From Candidatus Hadarchaeales archaeon (lineage in GTDB: Archaea; Hadarchaeota; Hadarchaeia; Hadarchaeales; Hadarchaeaceae): a stretch of DNA of 11,174 nucleotides. Positions 1,072 to 10,050 of the stretch are shown here, piece by piece. The stretch spans positions 1-11,174 of the forward strand of contig JAWCKV010000027.1 in assembly GCA_038851565.1 (NCBI GenBank), read 5' to 3'. Each line of letters starts with the position of its first letter. The first letter of the stretch is position 1. The notes beneath the pieces were generated by a model. The model was not told the DNA's origin, did not search any database, and saw nothing but the letters and a program-made list of their open reading frames with translations. The translations under genes were made by a program, and so were the position numbers.

Positions 1072-1111
1072 GTGGCGCCGGGGGGAGGACTCGAACCTCC
1101 GACCTCACGGT

Positions 1112-1168
1112 TTCAGCACGGCGCGCGTCGTCCATTTTTCATGGAGGTTCGCTCTTCATCCGCGCGTT
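1112..1168 (-). other. 57-nt tRNA intron at canonical position 37/38
   Basis: Interrupts the anticodon loop after GUUA. BHB geometry: C32-U35 (CUGU) against intron GCUG (one U-U mismatch, one U-G), bulges UA^A and AA^A, intron helix ACGCGCG with CGCG(C)CGU. Confidence 0.9.
1113..1159 (-). ncRNA. Putative intron-encoded box C/D guide sRNA
   Basis: C AUGAAGA (1159-1153), 10-nt guide GCGAACCUCC, D' AUGA (1142-1139), AAAA, degenerate C' UGGACGA (1134-1128), 11-nt guide CGCGCGCCGUG, D CUGA (1116-1113). Order and spacer lengths match archaeal C/D sRNAs. Confidence 0.65.
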
Positions 1169-1197
1169 TAACAGCCGTGCGCTCTACCTGCTGAGCT

Positions 1198-1216
1198 TTC
1201 GGGCTGCTGGCACAGC
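1198..1216 (-). other. 19-nt non-canonical tRNA intron at position 8/9
   Basis: Insert GCUGUGCCAGCAGCCCGAA between U8 and A9. Strict hBHBh': G1C2/G10C11, bulge AA^A, central helix CGGG/CCCG, bulge GU^G, intron helix CUGU/GCAG with GCCA loop. Confidence 0.85.
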
Positions 1217-1232
1217 ACCCCGGCACCCCGGC
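1217..1232 (-). repeat. Exact tandem duplication of tRNA nt 1-8 (GCCGGGGT x2)
   Basis: Minus strand reads GCCGGGGT GCCGGGGT GC at 1232-1225 and 1224-1217. Confidence 0.95.
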
Positions 1233-2780: not shown

Positions 2781-4028
2781 TTGAAAAAGCCCCACGTCAA
2801 TCTTGTCTTCATTGGCCACGTTGATCACGGCAAGTCCACCCTCATAGGCAGGATACTTGTTGAGCTGGGGATAGCCTCAGAGAAGGACCTGTCGCCGGAA
2901 GCGGGAAGCTTCAAGTTCGCCTGGTTGATGGACCGGGAGAAGGAGGAGCGCGAGAGGGGGCTCACGATCGACATAGCCTACCAGAAGATAGAGACATCCA
3001 GAAACGTGATAACAATAATAGACGCTCCTGGTCACAGGGACTTCGTGAAGAACATGATAACAGGGGCAAGCCAAGCCGACGCCGCTGTTCTTGTGGTGGC
3101 AGCGGACGATGGGATAATGCCGCAGACGAGGGAGCACGTCGCACTCGCATTCACCCTCGGGGTAAATCAGCTGGTGGTTGCCATAAACAAGATGGACCTC
3201 GTCGGATACGAGCAGAAGGTCTACTCGGAGCTGAGGGAGAAGCTGATCTCGCTGCTGACCAGCGTCGGGTACAGGAGGGCGGAGGAGTTCCAGTACATCC
3301 CAATTGCTGCGTTTCACGGGGAGGGGATAAAGGCGCACAGCGCCAAGATGCCCTGGTACAGGGGCCCCACCATCATTGAGGCCATCGAGGCCCTCGTTGA
3401 GCCGCCAAAGCCGGTTGAAAAGCCCCTCCGGGTGCCAATTCAGGAGGTCTACTCGATAACCGGAGTGGGCGTTGTGCCTATAGGGAGGGTTGAGACAGGG
3501 GTGTTGAAGGTGGGCGACAGGGTTATTTTCGAGCCGGCGGGGAAGGTGGGGGAGGTCAGATCAATAGAGATGCACCATGAACCGCTGGAGAGGGCGGAAC
3601 CGGGGGACAACATAGGTTTCAGCGTGAGGGGAGTGTCCAAGGGCGAGATAAGAAGAGGCGATGTGGCAGGTCCTCCGGACAGGCCTCCGACCGTGACGAG
3701 GGAGTTCGTGGGAAAAATAATCGTCCTCACGGTGCCCACCGAGCTCTCTTCCGGATTCGCACCGCTTTTCCACTGTCACGCCGCCCACTCTCCGGGAAGG
3801 TTCGTTGAGATTCTTCAGAGAATAGATCCCCGCACCGGAGGCGTTGTGGAGGAGAATCCAAGAGCCCTGAGAAGGGGGGACGCGGGGCTGGTCCGCGTGG
3901 TTCTTGATAAGCCCATGGTGATTGAACGGGCGGGAGATCTTCCGGAGCTGAGCAGGTTCGCGGTGAGGCACGGAGGCCAGACGATAGCGGCAGGCATATG
4001 CACGGACCTTGTTCCCCTAAAGAGTTAG
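2781..4028 (+). CDS. tuf: Translation elongation factor EF-1alpha-like GTPase (probable divergent paralog)
   Basis: G1 GHVDHGKST, switch I ERERGLTI, G3 DAPGHRDFVKNMITG, G4 NKMD, domain II GRVETG, SIEMHH, PGDNIGF, domain III RFAVR. TTG start after SD-like GAGGGA. Confidence 0.92.
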   Translation: MKKPHVNLVFIGHVDHGKSTLIGRILVELGIASEKDLSPEAGSFKFAWLMDREKEERERGLTIDIAYQKIETSRNVITIIDAPGHRDFVKNMITGASQADAAVLVVAADDGIMPQTREHVALAFTLGVNQLVVAINKMDLVGYEQKVYSELREKLISLLTSVGYRRAEEFQYIPIAAFHGEGIKAHSAKMPWYRGPTIIEAIEALVEPPKPVEKPLRVPIQEVYSITGVGVVPIGRVETGVLKVGDRVIFEPAGKVGEVRSIEMHHEPLERAEPGDNIGFSVRGVSKGEIRRGDVAGPPDRPPTVTREFVGKIIVLTVPTELSSGFAPLFHCHAAHSPGRFVEILQRIDPRTGGVVEENPRALRRGDAGLVRVVLDKPMVIERAGDLPELSRFAVRHGGQTIAAGICTDLVPLKS

Positions 4029-4843
4029 GGCCTGAGCAGGGTGGGCGGAGCGAGTTTGTGTTCGGTTCTCCTCTCCCTCTCGATGAACTTTATGACGGTG
4101 TCCTGGTCCACGCCTGCGCATCTTGCGATTGTGGCGGGCCTCAGCTTAAGGTCTAGCCCCGCATATATCACGTCCAGCTTTTCGTACGGGATGCCGAGTT
4201 CCCCCTCATCCGTCTGTCCCCTCCACAGCCCTGCCGATGGCTTTTTTCCTATTATATGCCTTGGGACTCCAAGATACCCCGCAAGCTGCAGCACCTGGGT
4301 TTTGTACAGGTGCCCTATTGGCAGCAGGTCTGCCCCCCCGTCCCCGAACTTGGTGAAGTAACCCGCCCTGATCTCGCTCCTGTTGCCACACCCAAGGACC
4401 ACGCCGTTCAGGAGGTTTGCATAGTAGTAGAGAACCGTCATCCGTATCCTGGGCTTCAGGTTGGCAAGGGGGAGCGGATTCTCGCCCGTCTTGTCCGGGA
4501 GTATCCCCATCAGGCTCTGTATGGCGGGGGAGATCTCTATGATCCTGAACCTTATCCCCAAGGAGGTCGCCACTTCCCGTGCGTCCGCAACGTCATGCGG
4601 ATCCGTGACGTTGCTTTCTGGAAGCGATATTCCAAGAACGCTCTTTCCACCCAGGGCCCTGGCGGCCAGCGACGCGACCACGCTGGAATCAACGCCTCCA
4701 CTCATCCCGATTATCGCCCAGTTCGCCCCAGCCTTTCTGAAGACCTCTGAGATGAAACTTCCTATCCTCCGTGTCTCCTTGTCCGGGTTTATCCTCAGGT
4801 ACTCCGCTATTCTCTCCGAGGCAGTTTTGGCGCTCATTTCCAT
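4025..4843 (-). CDS. nadE: NH3-dependent NAD+ synthetase
   Basis: SGGVDS PP-loop, NLKPRIRM, GNRSE, GYFTKFGDG, LYKTQV, KPSAGLW-GQTDEGELG. No glutaminase domain. Start 4843 or 4837. Confidence 0.96.
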   Translation of the reverse strand: MEMSAKTASERIAEYLRINPDKETRRIGSFISEVFRKAGANWAIIGMSGGVDSSVVASLAARALGGKSVLGISLPESNVTDPHDVADAREVATSLGIRFRIIEISPAIQSLMGILPDKTGENPLPLANLKPRIRMTVLYYYANLLNGVVLGCGNRSEIRAGYFTKFGDGGADLLPIGHLYKTQVLQLAGYLGVPRHIIGKKPSAGLWRGQTDEGELGIPYEKLDVIYAGLDLKLRPATIARCAGVDQDTVIKFIERERRTEHKLAPPTLLRP

Positions 4844-4846
4844 CTC

Positions 4847-5662
4847 CTAGAACCTTCTCGGGTAGGAGCCCAGGACCTTCAGCATCGCTGTTTTTTTTCT
4901 TACTCCCTCAATTGCCTCCTTAACGGTCGGGTCCTCCCTGTGGCCCTCGAGATCTATGAAGAAGAGGTAATCCCCGAGCGCTTTTTTGGAGGGACGGGAC
5001 TCTATCTTTGTTAGATTTATCCTTCTCGACGAGAATTCCCCGAGGATCTCGTGGAGTATGCCAGGCCTGTCCCTGGCGGTGTAGAATACTATTGAGGTCT
5101 TGTCCTTCCCGGTCCTGCCGGAGTCCGATCTGGAAATGCATAGGAATCTGGTGAGGTTCGGTTCAGCAACTTTGACCTCATCAAGCACCTTCAGCCCGTA
5201 GATCCCCGCAAGCTCCCTGGGCCCCAGCGCAGCGATGTCGTCCGATCCGGCGTTTTTCACCTCCTCGGCCGCCCGTGCCGTGCTTGCCGTTTCCACGGTT
5301 TCCGCCCCTGGGAGCTTTTTCCTCAGGTATTCTCTGCACTGGGCCAGGGCCTGCGGGTGAGAGAGGACCTTCATCACCTTTTTGATGTTTGAGCCCCGGT
5401 TTCCGAGCAGGAAGTGATCAACTCGATAGACGATTTCTCCCCGCACCCTGAGCTCCATCCATGCAAGAGCGTCGAGGGTTTCCCCAACTGATCCGTTTCT
5501 GAGGCTCTCGACCGGAACTACCCCCACATCAACTCTTCCATCGACTACGGCCTCAGCCACATCCGTTATGGTTGGGAAATAGACCAGTTCACACCTCCCG
5601 TACTCCTGCCTCGCCGCGAGTTCCGCATAGGTGCCTCTGGGACCCAGAACCCCCACCCTCAT
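4847..5662 (-). CDS. pheA: Monofunctional prephenate dehydratase with ACT domain
   Basis: LGPRGTY, VVPVES, SHPQALAQC, STARAA, NLTRF, and ACT domain DRPGIL...INLTKIESRP...YLFFID...LGSYP. Confidence 0.96.
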   Translation of the reverse strand: MRVGVLGPRGTYAELAARQEYGRCELVYFPTITDVAEAVVDGRVDVGVVPVESLRNGSVGETLDALAWMELRVRGEIVYRVDHFLLGNRGSNIKKVMKVLSHPQALAQCREYLRKKLPGAETVETASTARAAEEVKNAGSDDIAALGPRELAGIYGLKVLDEVKVAEPNLTRFLCISRSDSGRTGKDKTSIVFYTARDRPGILHEILGEFSSRRINLTKIESRPSKKALGDYLFFIDLEGHREDPTVKEAIEGVRKKTAMLKVLGSYPRRF

Positions 5663-6516
5663 CTTTTCCTCCCCTCAAATCTCCTGTATAACTCTCTGTA
5701 GCTTTTTTCAAGTTCACTCCTGTCGAACATCTTCATGGCCCTCTTGAGGAATTCCGGCGTTGATCTGAAGTCCCCACTGGAAAAGGCAAGATCCAGGGAA
5801 CGACATGCCTCAATGAAGTGACTCCTGATTATCCTGCTGTACCTGTTGTGCACCTGTATCTCTCCGTACATCTTGAGATCCCCGCGCAGGAGGCATTTCG
5901 CGAGTTCCCTGAGCTCCTCGAAGATGGGGGTTCTTATCTTCCCGGTTTTGCAGTATTCCTTTAGGGTGCTGGCGGAAGCGAGATATGAGATTAGCGTGAA
6001 ATGCGTCAGCGACTGGATAACGGACATCAGCCTGTCATGCTCCTCCGCATCCATCTCCGTGAATGTGGCTCCATTCTTCACCATGAACTGCTTCAACCAC
6101 CTGTACCATCTTCCGGTTTTTACTGGAACCGATATGACATCCTTACCCCTCAGGGTGGTTGCGCCGGGCCCGAATAGAGGGTGTACTGATGCGAGCTCTA
6201 TCCTGCCCTTGAACTCCTTCATGACCTCCACGACTTCACTTTTCACTGATGAGATATCAACCAGAAGCGCGCCTGTCTTCATAAAGCCAAGAGCTGACCT
6301 CACCACCCTCGGGGTTTCGGATATTGGAACCGCTACTAGGATTATGTCCGCGCTCCTCACGGCCTCGTGCTGTGGAGCGGAGGAGACCCCGAGCCTGGAG
6401 GCGGCATCGTCTGCAATTTTCCTTTCTATGTCGCACAGCGTTACCTTCCCCTCCTCCTTCAGAAGATTTGCAAACCAGCTCCCCATAGTCCCCGCCCCAA
6501 TGATTGTTATCTTCAT
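5659..6516 (-). CDS. tyrA: Prephenate/arogenate dehydrogenase
   Basis: Rossmann MKITIIGAGTMG, DISSVK, HPLFGP, EEHDRLMSVIQSLTHF. Start ATG 6516 follows SD GAGGAGG and overlaps the aroE stop (ATGA). Confidence 0.93.
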   Translation of the reverse strand: MKITIIGAGTMGSWFANLLKEEGKVTLCDIERKIADDAASRLGVSSAPQHEAVRSADIILVAVPISETPRVVRSALGFMKTGALLVDISSVKSEVVEVMKEFKGRIELASVHPLFGPGATTLRGKDVISVPVKTGRWYRWLKQFMVKNGATFTEMDAEEHDRLMSVIQSLTHFTLISYLASASTLKEYCKTGKIRTPIFEELRELAKCLLRGDLKMYGEIQVHNRYSRIIRSHFIEACRSLDLAFSSGDFRSTPEFLKRAMKMFDRSELEKSYRELYRRFEGRKR

Positions 6517-7349
6517 ATCCTCCTCAGCTCCATTTGGGCCGCTTTTCTCATGACCTCTACTGGGGCCCTTTTTCCAGTCCATATCTCAAAGGAGAGGGCC
6601 CCCTGATGAACCAGCATATCCACCCCCCGTATTGTCTTCGCGCCGGCCTTTTTCGCCTCCCTCAGAAGCCTGGTTTCCTGGGGCTTGTACACTATGTCAA
6701 ATACGACTGCGTTATCCGGTATCATCTTCGAAGTGAGAAGAGTGCGTTCGCTCTCGGGATACATCCCCACGGAGGTTGCGTTTATGATTATGTCGGAGCC
6801 CATCGCCGCCGTTGAGAGCTCATCGCCCCTGAGAGCCACGCACCTCACATCCTCCCCCAGTTTTTCTTTTATGTCCCTGGCGAGGGCGCTTGCGCGGGGG
6901 ATCGTCCTGTTTGCGATCGTGAGCTCTGCGCCCTCAGCCGCAATGGAGAAAGCTATTGCCCTGGCCGCCCCTCCGGCTCCCAGCAGCAGCACCTTTTTTC
7001 CGCTGACCCTCGTGGCCGCCTTCAAGGCTCTAAGGGCCCCAGGCCCATCCGTGTTGAACCCGATCAGCTTTCCGCCGGCATTCTTTATCGTGTTGACTGC
7101 ACCCACCAGACTGGCAGTCTCGTGAAGTTCGTCCATGAATGGCATCACGGCTACTTTGTGAGGGATGGTGACGTTCGCTCCGGCGATGCCGAGTGCCCTG
7201 ATCCCAGCTACCGCGTCCTGAAGATTCGGGGGAGGAACGTCAGCGGCCACATAGACGCAGTCGAGGCCCAACTGAGAAAATGCAGCATTGTGCATGGAGG
7301 GGGAGGGGCTGCCCTTCACGGGGTGCCCTATGAGCGCGAATACCTTCAT
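6513..7349 (-). CDS. aroE: Shikimate dehydrogenase
   Basis: GHPV..S.SP.MHN, NVTIPHK, GAVNT, GFNTDG, GAGGAARA, NRT, NATSVGM, DIVY.P, MLVHQG. Start ATG 7349 overlaps the aroD stop (ATGA). Confidence 0.96.
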   Translation of the reverse strand: MKVFALIGHPVKGSPSPSMHNAAFSQLGLDCVYVAADVPPPNLQDAVAGIRALGIAGANVTIPHKVAVMPFMDELHETASLVGAVNTIKNAGGKLIGFNTDGPGALRALKAATRVSGKKVLLLGAGGAARAIAFSIAAEGAELTIANRTIPRASALARDIKEKLGEDVRCVALRGDELSTAAMGSDIIINATSVGMYPESERTLLTSKMIPDNAVVFDIVYKPQETRLLREAKKAGAKTIRGVDMLVHQGALSFEIWTGKRAPVEVMRKAAQMELRRI

Positions 7350-8068
7350 TCGCGGACCTCCAGCTCCCTGAGGTAATGAATCCACTCCACGGCTGTTTTC
7401 AGGTCCGGTTGACCGGGAGCGGTTTTCTCAAGCACACCGGCATACATCCATGGTGAGCCCAGCACGGGTGCTATGTACCTGGTGATCTTCCCAGCCTCAC
7501 CCATGGCAAATGATATCAGCGGAACTTCGGAGCGTTCCTGCGTTCTCACGAGGAACTCCAGCATCCTCGTTGCATCCTCACGCGTTTTTGCCATCGTCAC
7601 TATCTTCACGAAGTTTCCCTTGTCTGTCGCCTTTTTCAGGATATCTTCAAGGAACTCTGGTTTCGGAGTCCCTGAAAACTCGTGATGGGAGATCAGCACC
7701 GAGATCTTCTTCCGCCTGGCTTCGTCCAGCACCTCGCGCATTAGGTCGGGAGGAGTTGACAGCTCGACGTCAACACACGATGGGCGGAGGTCCATGGACT
7801 CCAGAAGAGCGCCCACTCTTTCCTTCTCTCCTCCCTCGTAACCTCCGCCTTCCTTCCTTGGGCGATTTGTGAGTATCAAGGGAATCCCGCAGGGCATTAT
7901 CCTGCTGAGGTCCAGTTTCTTCCCGGCAAGGTCCATCCTGACCTCCACAAGGTCGGCTTCCCCAGCGAGTTTGATCTTCCTCTCCATCTCGCTTTCTTCC
8001 CTGCCGGCGATGGATGCGCAGACGGCAGGCGTCTTGACTTTGTGCTTCCCGACGAAGATCTCCCCCAT
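7346..8068 (-). CDS. aroD: Type I 3-dehydroquinate dehydratase
   Basis: EVRMD, TNR...EGG, DVEL, SHHEF, Schiff-base lysine in VKIV, FAMG, TR, TAPGQ. Start ATG 8068 after GAGGTGAGG. Confidence 0.93.
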   Translation of the reverse strand: MGEIFVGKHKVKTPAVCASIAGREESEMERKIKLAGEADLVEVRMDLAGKKLDLSRIMPCGIPLILTNRPRKEGGGYEGGEKERVGALLESMDLRPSCVDVELSTPPDLMREVLDEARRKKISVLISHHEFSGTPKPEFLEDILKKATDKGNFVKIVTMAKTREDATRMLEFLVRTQERSEVPLISFAMGEAGKITRYIAPVLGSPWMYAGVLEKTAPGQPDLKTAVEWIHYLRELEVRE

Positions 8069-8078
8069 GGACTCGCCC

Positions 8079-9188
8079 TCACCTCTCAACTATCGTCTCG
8101 TCAACCTTTATTCCAAAGTGCCTCCCGGTCTTTTCCACGCGCATGAGCACCTCGTCGCCCTCTCTGAGCCTCGTAACTGATATCGGATTCCCATCCGCGC
8201 TTACAAGGTTTATCGTTTCTGCGTTCTGAAGGAGCGTTCTGTACTTCTCCCCTCCGCATTCGACCTCAACCAGCGTCATCGGCCTTCTCTCTATTTTTAT
8301 CCTGCCCACTATCGCAGTTCTTCCCCTCCCCTTGCTGTTGACTATGAGTACCTCGTCCCCCGCCTTCAGCTCAGAGATGTACTTGGTTCTTCCCCCTGGC
8401 AGAAGCACATATGCATGAACTGCTCCAGCGTTGACCCTGAAGGGACGCGGCTCAACGAAATCCGAGTGCAGCGTCTCGGAGTGTACCAGGAAAAGACCGC
8501 TCGCCTGGCCGCCGACAAGCATCCCTTCGCCCACCTCCATGAGGGTGGTTGTGTCTATGCAGGCTCTGTCTCCCAGCCCTACAGGTTTGACCAGTGTCAC
8601 CCTGCCCCGGACGAGCTCCACTTTTTCCACGTTCGCGGCATCCAGACGCTCCCTGACCCTTGCTATCTCCTCTGGCCCCCGGGACCTTGGATCCAGAAGG
8701 ATCCCGTCTGCCCCGGCCTCCAGCGTGTCCACCGCCAGCCTGGCCTCCTCGGCATCTCTGACCCCGGCCAGTATAGTCACGGTTCCCTTGAGTTCAGCTA
8801 TCAGGTTCTCGAGCGGGATCACCTTCCATCCGGGAGTCATCACGAGCAGGTAGTCGGCCAGCTTTCCAAGCTCGACGGCAAGCCTTTCCGACTGCTTGTC
8901 CTTCACAGTTACGAGAACAGCGACTTTTTTTCCCATTTTTCTTGCGGACTGGATCTCAAATGCGGCTTCGTTCTTTTTCCCCTCCTCTGGGCATACAATA
9001 GATATGCTGGCGCTGTTGTCAATTCCGCGGCACGCTGTTAGCGTTCCCCCTATCCCAATCACTTCCTGAACGTCCTCGGGTTTAACGACAATGGCATCGG
9101 CCCCAGCCTCAACGGCCTTGAGGATGAACGGTCTCTTTTCTTCTCGACCTTCCCCCCAGTCGGCAAGGACCCAAAGCAGCTTGTGCAA
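8079..9188 (-). CDS. aroB': 3-dehydroquinate synthase II (archaeal AroB', MJ1249 family)
   Basis: WKVIPLENLIA, LEAGADG, GDRACIDT, GEGMLVG, FLVHSET, RPFRVNAGAVHAY, GRIKIERRP, LQNAETI, GRHFG. Probable TTG start at 9188 after SD AGGTGAGG (9198-9191). Confidence 0.95.
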   Translation of the reverse strand: MHKLLWVLADWGEGREEKRPFILKAVEAGADAIVVKPEDVQEVIGIGGTLTACRGIDNSASISIVCPEEGKKNEAAFEIQSARKMGKKVAVLVTVKDKQSERLAVELGKLADYLLVMTPGWKVIPLENLIAELKGTVTILAGVRDAEEARLAVDTLEAGADGILLDPRSRGPEEIARVRERLDAANVEKVELVRGRVTLVKPVGLGDRACIDTTTLMEVGEGMLVGGQASGLFLVHSETLHSDFVEPRPFRVNAGAVHAYVLLPGGRTKYISELKAGDEVLIVNSKGRGRTAIVGRIKIERRPMTLVEVECGGEKYRTLLQNAETINLVSADGNPISVTRLREGDEVLMRVEKTGRHFGIKVDETIVER

Positions 9189-9192
9189 GGCC

Positions 9193-9990
9193 TCACCTGA
9201 GCTCTCGCATCGCTCTCTCAACGCCTGCTCCTTCATGGACTACCGTGGCAAGCGCTCTCGTCATGGCTGCTGGGTCTTTGTGCTGAAATATGTTTCTTCC
9301 TATGGATATCCCTATGGCCCCCGCCTCCATGGCTTCGTGTGCCATCTCCAGCACCTCGCGGGGGGTGGACATCTTTGGGCCCCCTGCTATGACAATCGGA
9401 ACCGGACACCCCCTAACGACCTTTCGGAAGGTTGAGGGGCTTCCGGTGTAGACGGTCTTCACTATGTCTGCCCCCAGCTCTGCCCCGACCCTTGCGGCGT
9501 GTGCGACCAGCTCCGGGTTGTGCTGGTTTTTAATCTTGGGCCCCCTGGGATACATCATTGCGAAAAGGGGCATGCCCCACCTCGCGCAGGCCTCAGCGGT
9601 TCTGCCAAGCTGCTCAAGCTGCTCGTTCTCGTTTGGTGCTCCCACGTTCACGTGGATCGATATGCCGTCGGCTCCGAGCGAAATCGCCTCCTCCACGCTG
9701 CTAACGAGCACCTTGCTGTTTGGGTCTGGTCCCAGGGACGTGCTTCCCGAGATGTGTATGAGCAATCCGATGTCCTTACCGTAACCCCTGTGCCCGGCCC
9801 GCACTATGCCCTTGTGCAGGACCACCGCATTCGCGCCCCCCTCCGCCACCTTATCGATTACTCTGGTCATGTCCTCTATTCCGGGTATGGGGCCCATGGA
9901 GAGTCCGTGATCCATGGGCACGATCACAGTGTGGCGGGTTCTTCTGTCTATTATCCTCTCGAGCCTTATTCGCTTTCCCACATCTGACAT
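9193..9990 (-). CDS. aroA': 2-amino-3,7-dideoxy-D-threo-hept-6-ulosonate (ADH) synthase (AroA', MJ0400 family class I aldolase)
   Basis: [57 protein letters not shown]; adjacent to aroB'. Start ATG 9990 after SD AGGTGG. Confidence 0.93.
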
Positions 9991-10014
9991 GGGCTCCACC
10001 TTTCTGTGGTTAGT

Positions 10015-10050
10015 TTTAAGCCCATTTAACCCCATCGCCACTGTGTGGCG
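10015..10050. promoter_or_regulatory. Divergent promoter region with 10-bp tandem repeat and 6-bp inverted repeat
   Basis: TTTAAGCCCA (10015-10024) and TTTAACCCCA (10025-10034); CGCCAC-TGT-GTGGCG (10036-10050). On the minus strand the repeats give TATA-like TTAAA boxes upstream of aroA'. Confidence 0.45.

Follow-up and report, generated by a model that had tools for sequence, protein, structure and literature searches.

The main intron of a tRNA-Asn(GUU) gene from Candidatus Hadarchaeales archaeon carries a conserved antisense element complementary to the T arm of its own host tRNA, placed one base behind the box C-like half of a single putative C/D-type kink-turn. In our best explanation, which is held tentatively and at somewhat below even confidence, this intron is a reduced methylation guide, predicted from its sequence to specify 2'-O-methylation at A51 of tRNA-Asn. 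The window, i.e., the whole stretch of DNA that was analysed, is 11,174 nt long, and tRNA positions (G49, A51, G53, etc.) are given in tRNA numbering. The features are the following:

1073..1224, minus strand: tRNA-Asn(GUU) gene with two introns (G1 = 1224, encoded CCA = 1075-1073), from the Rfam RF00005 match at 1197-1084 and the exon/intron reading
1225..1232, minus strand: 8-nt leader repeat of the tRNA's 5' end, identical to 1224-1217
1198..1216, minus strand: second intron, 19 nt, separating U8 from A9, with a bulge-helix-bulge of its own, read from the sequence
1112..1168, minus strand: main intron, 57 nt, at 37/38, the A37/A38 exon junction being read from the sequence
1161..1166, minus strand: 5' strand of the kink-turn closing stem, from stem-anchored pair counts in 96 genes
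1153..1159, minus strand: box C-like motif AUGAAGA (RUGAWGA in 47/50 and UGA in 50/50 BLAST genes)
1142..1151, minus strand: antisense element, 10 nt, positions 2-11 behind box C (U1145 = position 8; 1.2-2.0 bits per column)
1132..1141, minus strand: variable linker, 10-13 nt, of no conserved sequence, holding most of the box D' of an earlier note (AUGA, 1142-1139)
1128..1131, minus strand: box D-like motif ACGA (GA immediately 5' of a stem of at least 3 bp in 96/101 genes)
1122..1127, minus strand: 3' strand of the kink-turn stem, paired with 1166-1161 (fold and pair counts), part of the earlier note's "D guide"
1112..1117, minus strand: 3' splice-site strand, in which GCUG pairs with C32-U35 (one U.U mismatch) beside an AA bulge, holding the earlier note's box D
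1092..1100, minus strand: host T-arm segment G49-G57 (A51 = 1098, G53 = 1096), with GAGGUUCG in 101/101 hosts

The neighbouring genes encode a DHH-family protein and a phosphopantothenate synthetase. RF00005 was the sole Rfam match of the window at the gathering score; ARAGORN made no call at this locus in intron-free mode and a wrong one, tRNA-Val, in intron mode. The 37/38 intron was missing from none of the 51 tRNA-Asn genes that the 56 genomes of the order yielded; five of these genomes (75-88% complete) gave no tRNA-Asn match. The 8/9 insertion was detected by regex in 21 of 50 relatives, and the 8-nt leader copy in 23 of them, including all 21 with the 8/9 intron. Judged from the sequence, this copy could pair with the 3' strand of the acceptor stem while the splice helix holds the true 5' strand. 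Further introns occur in the tRNA-Asn genes of the order in varying sets, i.e., in the D loop of 7/50 and in the T loop of 9/50 genes (regex; L024-L050). One RNA run (X1) provided a 179-nt contig spanning the unspliced intron and a contig in the neighbouring gene; since their depth was similar, these contigs are evidence of neither expression nor splicing. Contigs of a second run (X2) covered other tRNAs only. Elsewhere in the window, a run of minus-strand genes at 4025-10041 presumably serves aromatic amino acid and NAD synthesis; from their translations, we take them to encode ADH synthase, DHQ synthase II, DHQ dehydratase, shikimate and prephenate dehydrogenases, prephenate dehydratase and NAD synthetase. 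The assembly holds two splicing-endonuclease matches (G000:C49:3577-3834 and G000:C10:17891-18148), against one in the relatives tested, and three tRNA-Pro entries with identical arms, so that gene duplication or bin redundancy is possible.

For comparison, 170 loci were collected, 50 by BLAST within the order, 46 by pattern in genomes, 72 by pattern in metagenomes and 2 fetched singly. Parsing succeeded for 162, giving 103 distinct genes, and 101 were analysed once two had been set aside as different introns; the remaining eight loci were seven non-tRNA or unrelated matches and the intron-less tRNA-Asn gene of G056, an outgroup in the same phylum. Because the search patterns demanded box C (the guide was not demanded), the frequency of box C was taken from the 50 BLAST loci only. 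The 101 genes probably descend from one intron gain and are hence kin rather than independent cases, and the trees built from the two flanking proteins lacked the resolution needed for counting independent changes at position 49. Across 185,579 species genomes of GTDB, a pattern of tRNA-Asn anticodon, box C and T loop matched 46 times. Relatives made up 42 of these matches, nearly all Hadarchaeota by name, two being labelled just uncultured archaeon or Methanobacteriota. The four matches outside Hadarchaeota were three without the intron and one Nitrososphaeria tRNA-Asn with a guide-less 26-nt intron (L085), in which GUGAAGA and CUGA are present and the T-arm complement is absent. Box C plus guide outside the order matched in 18 of 236 genomes, about the level of a reversed-pattern control, and none of the 20 stretches fetched (these 18 and two second matches inside the order) gave a tRNA call with ARAGORN. 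The best-looking outside copy (G148, CUGA at 13-16) was rejected as lying inside an ORF, as was one more match. On a marine contig (L186), a tRNA cluster includes a pair of tRNA-Asn-like genes with inserts of about 50 nt bearing GUGAUGA and a small hairpin; these inserts are not the Hadarchaeota element.

The nine nucleotides at 1151-1143 (CGAACCUCC) are the exact complement of 1100-1092 (G49-G57, GGAGGUUCG) on the minus strand, as the earlier note had it, and form the longest complement between intron and exons. Across the 101 distinct genes, positions 2-9 pair with G50-G57 (8 bp) in 100, and 9 bp are formed in 24, within the 8-12 nt of an antisense element. Just one change recurs within the duplex: opposite U54, A is replaced by G (14/101), which keeps the pairing. 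Host position 49 is G in 29 genes and A in 72; position 10 is C solely with G49 hosts (24/24), while with all 72 A49 hosts it is A, never U, and hence unpaired. Position 11, an A in 100/101 genes, faces C48 and is likewise unpaired; neither base choice is explained by the tRNA. The search for guide/target covariation that the earlier note had suggested gave no two-sided change in 101 genes, none being visible because G50-G57 is invariant in all hosts. This invariance is not special, since the T stems of the Met and Trp tRNAs are nearly as invariant. When the intron was dinucleotide-shuffled, complements of at least 9 nt to the 76-nt exon sequence arose in 124 of 10,000 cases. Such a frequency (1.2%), the single intron gain behind all genes and a target that never varies would suit a chance or relic complement, the element being kept for protein binding or splicing alone. 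Such an origin would leave a near-invariant block next to a hypervariable linker and a freely covarying stem to be accounted for, and this block outlasts the loss of box D, its sole recurrent change preserving the pairing. We consider it scarcely credible.

The anatomy of the intron points to one stem-closed motif. Tandem GA/AG pairs and a 3-nt bulge stand on a covarying stem in 96/101 genes, as in a terminal C/D kink-turn, the boxes (AUGAAGA and ACGA) being degenerate relative to the RUGAUGA and CUGA of archaeal guides. In these 96 genes, pair 2 of the closing stem is C-G in 19, U-A in 62 and U-G in 15, pair 3 is G-C in 37, A-U in 57 and G-U in 2, and the box D variants are ACGA (78), other NYGA (14) and NGGA (4). 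The distance from box C to box D is 19-21 nt in 90/96, and the sequence would thus fold as a C/D-type kink-turn closed by a stem, with a loop of 19-21 nt. Its C/D pairs deviate from the U.U and G-C of the consensus kink-turn, being A.C in 80/96. Behind box C comes one purine (position 1, 1.0 bits), then the 10-nt block, and positions 12-22 hold at most 0.44 bits each. No internal C'/D' motif, as in a bipartite layout, was conserved in this loop among the 101 genes, and a small hairpin predicted there by RNAfold was dismissed as not conserved. Five short introns of 41-42 nt, probably a single event, all lack box D, and their closing stem begins at position 13. At the 3' end, the splice-site strand keeps at least three of four pairs with CUGU in 49/50 genes and reads ACAG or GCAG in 25. 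An H/ACA guide RNA, marked by a 3' ACA and, below the kink-turn, a two-sided pocket for pseudouridylation, was also considered and rejected: here, the antisense sequence runs uninterrupted through the loop over the motif, and the ACA at the 3' end belongs to the variable splice-site strand (ACAG in 15/50).

The earlier note was right about a C/D-type motif and an element directed against the host T arm, which proved to be conserved, and had fitted them into a four-box C/D'/C'/D guide with D' AUGA and D CUGA, directing Gm53 and possibly Gm31. This layout finds little in the 101 genes to sustain it, as its boxes are not conserved. The D' motif occurs at the proposed place in 3/101 genes, and a contig from an RNA run, 95-99% alike to the window, has AUCG there. 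The D motif (CUGA, 1116-1113), also present in 3/101, shares bases with the intron strand opposite C32-U35 in the bulge-helix-bulge of the splice site. The match between GCCGUG (1122-1117) and C27-C32 (1179-1174) is an exact complement, as claimed, but at chance level: complements of at least 6 nt arose in 6,856 of 10,000 shuffles, and this one is kept in 7/101 genes, all with the same CACGG anticodon stem. The full "D guide", suggested as possibly targeting another RNA, consists mostly of the 3' strand in the stem that closes the kink-turn (1127-1122), and the idea of a second guide finds no support. The targets G53 and G31, derived from D' and D, lose their basis with these boxes. Only in the genome of the window does AUGA adjoin the guide and CUGA follow the 6-bp match, and the four-box guide is thus very improbable.

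The tRNA-Trp introns of the phylum provided a ruler for reading the register of the Asn element. In the outgroup G058, the Trp intron shows box C', 12 nt and CUGA, with position 8 opposite C34, which is the site reported for the Trp-intron guide (PMC7994747; PMC7714728). Parsing of 36 of 40 Trp loci gave 35 distinct Hadarchaeota introns, 34 of which keep the C34 register, with two-sided changes at the intron end. None of the 35 has CUGA at positions 13-16 (GUGA in 3). Applied to the Asn intron, this box-C ruler, i.e., position 8 opposite the target, leads to the A51 prediction: position 8 (U1145) is opposite A51 in 100/101 genes. The register would then be set from box C and not from box D, position 8 being N+5 of a 12-nt spacer. 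The conserved block covers exactly spacer positions 2-11, positions 1 and 12 being variable. In structures of archaeal RNPs, the substrate pairs with positions 2-11 of a 12-nt spacer, and Nop5 sits mainly on the box C side (PMC9670817); the coincidence of the two stretches counts for an A51 guide. So do the short introns, with a stem from position 13 onwards, the place at which box D can be substituted by an engineered stem. A canonical reading fails, since N+5 from the actual box D falls in the variable linker, where the base is A in 42, G in 27, C in 16 and U in 11 of 96 genes. The guide does not stand directly upstream of a box D or D'; only in the five short introns does it adjoin a stem in this way.

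Other introns of the phylum showed related layouts. The Met intron has one motif, and a canonical C34 guide upstream of CUGA was seen in the 27 distinct genes that 29 of 38 loci yielded under a regex demanding both boxes. An elongator tRNA-Met gene (L230 / G000:C8:25913-26034), which ARAGORN wrongly called Ser, contains an intron with a single CUGA/AUGAUG motif and a guide that is in the C34 register, and the elongator tRNA-Met gene of two f5 genomes is without intron. The Trp introns L231 / G000:C6:11329-11457 and L265-L304 have the C34 guide behind box C', without box D. In some f4 genomes, the Trp C39 guide is decayed and the C34 guide covarying. The Hadarchaeota Trp introns are candidate natural one-motif guides. 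A wider proposal, that Hadarchaeota possess natural box-D-independent guides with a single kink-turn and a box-C register (A51 in Asn, C34 in Trp), one family being reduced to a plain stem, is possible and is put forward with more reserve than the A51 prediction itself.

In the proposed mechanism, the one C/D motif on its covarying stem would fold into a kink-turn, bind L7Ae, Nop5 and fibrillarin, and let the element pair with the T arm, probably in trans from a precursor or an excised intron, as reported for the Trp intron (PMC7994747; PMC7714728; PMC4090602). Genes for fibrillarin, Nop5 and L7Ae were found in 5/5 genomes and the splicing endonuclease in 4/5, all four being present in the genome of the window. 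Besides, sRNA targeting of position 51 has been predicted for Pyrobaculum (PMC6009581). A report of Am51 in archaeal tRNA was not found in the literature on Am51, tRNA and archaea, as covered by titles and abstract openings. Deletion of C'/D' from an archaeal guide abolished in vitro methylation by the guide behind box C (PMC7229835). It is counted against A51 methylation because the deleted RNA has nearly the layout of the Asn intron; point mutations of single boxes were tolerated (PMC7229835). The invariant target, the unpaired positions 10-11, the deviations of the kink-turn and the probable single origin of the short introns also speak against it, as does the duplex of 8 bp, which is marginal for a guide and its substrate.

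Several of these observations would suit equally a pairing with the T arm that does not lead to methylation. An antisense loop on an L7Ae-bound kink-turn could hold the T stem open and so either chaperone folding or act as a brake by which splicing and T-loop modification are put in order. The same conservation of 8 bp in 100/101 genes would be expected, and the guide/T-arm duplex (-14.9 kcal/mol) is more stable than the T hairpin (-6.7 kcal/mol). No box D or stem stands at the needed distance in 96/101 genes, which is the arrangement that the inactive C'/D' deletion resembles (PMC7229835), and conserved sRNA/target pairings without methylation are known in Pyrobaculum (PMC6009581). However, a pairing function leaves unexplained why, as in the Trp guide, a single base separates the 10-nt block from box C, and why the stem of the short introns stands at position 13; T-loop introns, whose splice helix involves the same bases, exist in just 9/50 genes. 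We consider this non-catalytic function rather unlikely, and the A51 guide is retained as the preferred explanation.

Another RNA could be the main or a second target, the best candidate being 16S rRNA near nucleotides 33-42. The comparison covered 36 genomes with both genes (G010, dropped by the regex, shows two mismatches). All ten positions of the element pair with 16S rRNA in 17/36 genomes, against 0/36 for the tRNA, with position 11 paired in 36/36 and position 10 in 26/36. Against this, the 8-nt core is broken in 16/36 genomes without a compensating change, including five of five g15 genomes of f4, three of three of f5 and the genus mate G001, whereas against the tRNA it is intact in 36/36; position 8 would moreover be a U.G wobble in all 36. 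The assembly of the window holds neither 16S nor 23S rRNA, and in four relatives the sense strands of 23S, 5S, SRP and RNase P RNA showed no common site. Such a target is improbable. The suggestion that other tRNAs share the T arm did not hold either: among 38 T-arm-like hairpins of the same genome, G50-A51-G52-G53-UUCG occurs solely in tRNA-Asn. From five relatives, 18 other A51-type pattern matches were fetched and none was a tRNA with that arm, the single tRNA among them being a tRNA-Leu with 7 bp. Replacement of Trm56, the Cm56 enzyme, was rejected as an explanation, Trm56 being present in 39/61 genomes searched, including many with the intron, and the element being out of the C56 register. 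Trm56 was not found in the genome of the window (87% complete), its genus mate, or the genera g8 (0/7) and g9 (0/6), and a clade-wide loss of this enzyme is possible (the 13 g8 and g9 genomes include some more than 90% complete).

If natural box-D-independent guides exist, they would be an exception to the rule of N+5 from box D, and among them would be the first guide directed at a tRNA T stem from within an intron. PMC9670817 leaves it open if some archaeal guides do without a C/D motif or carry a stem in its place, and the Asn introns, of 41-64 nt, are short natural candidates for such guides. Even without methylation, an intron conserved for pairing with its own T arm would have a still undescribed function. 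No description of this element was found in the literature on Hadarchaeota and archaeal tRNA introns, as covered by the titles and abstract openings of a collection with few subscription papers.

Among known systems, two free-standing C/D guides are directed at the T arm, i.e., Pyrobaculum sR64, with a predicted target at G51 in sixteen tRNA families (PMC6009581), and the P. aerophilum Cm56 sRNP (PMC6313347). Both are canonical sRNAs, unlike the intron-borne Asn element, which is not in the C56 register. The halfmer and C/D-free engineered guides (PMC7229835; PMC9670817; PMC6770171) resemble it in that a single C/D motif, or a plain stem replacing one, guides methylation; their active element is directly upstream of box D or the stem, which fits the five short Asn introns and not the 96 long ones. 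The C/D-like intron of Nanoarchaeum equitans elongator tRNA-Met (PMC3491384), a stable tRNA intron, shares with the Asn intron its one named pair of boxes C and D; it belongs to another tRNA, and no target is named in the passages that describe it. A further parallel is the archaeal pre-tRNA-Trp intron (Haloferax volcanii; Pyrococcus sR50), which guides Cm34 and Um39 (PMC7994747; PMC7714728; PMC4090602). Both are long 37/38 introns with a C/D-type motif and antisense to their own tRNA. The Asn intron differs by its host, its T-arm target, one motif instead of two and one guide, which is tied to box C and separated from box D by 10-13 variable bases. Since it lacks C'/D' and a guide beside box D, it is not classified as a member of the archaeal C/D guides. 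Whereas tRNA-intron guides in archaea are known for tRNA-Trp and have been proposed for one tRNA-Met (PMC7994747; PMC7714728; PMC3491384), the Asn intron would bring a third host tRNA, a target in the T arm and a one-motif layout kept across an order.
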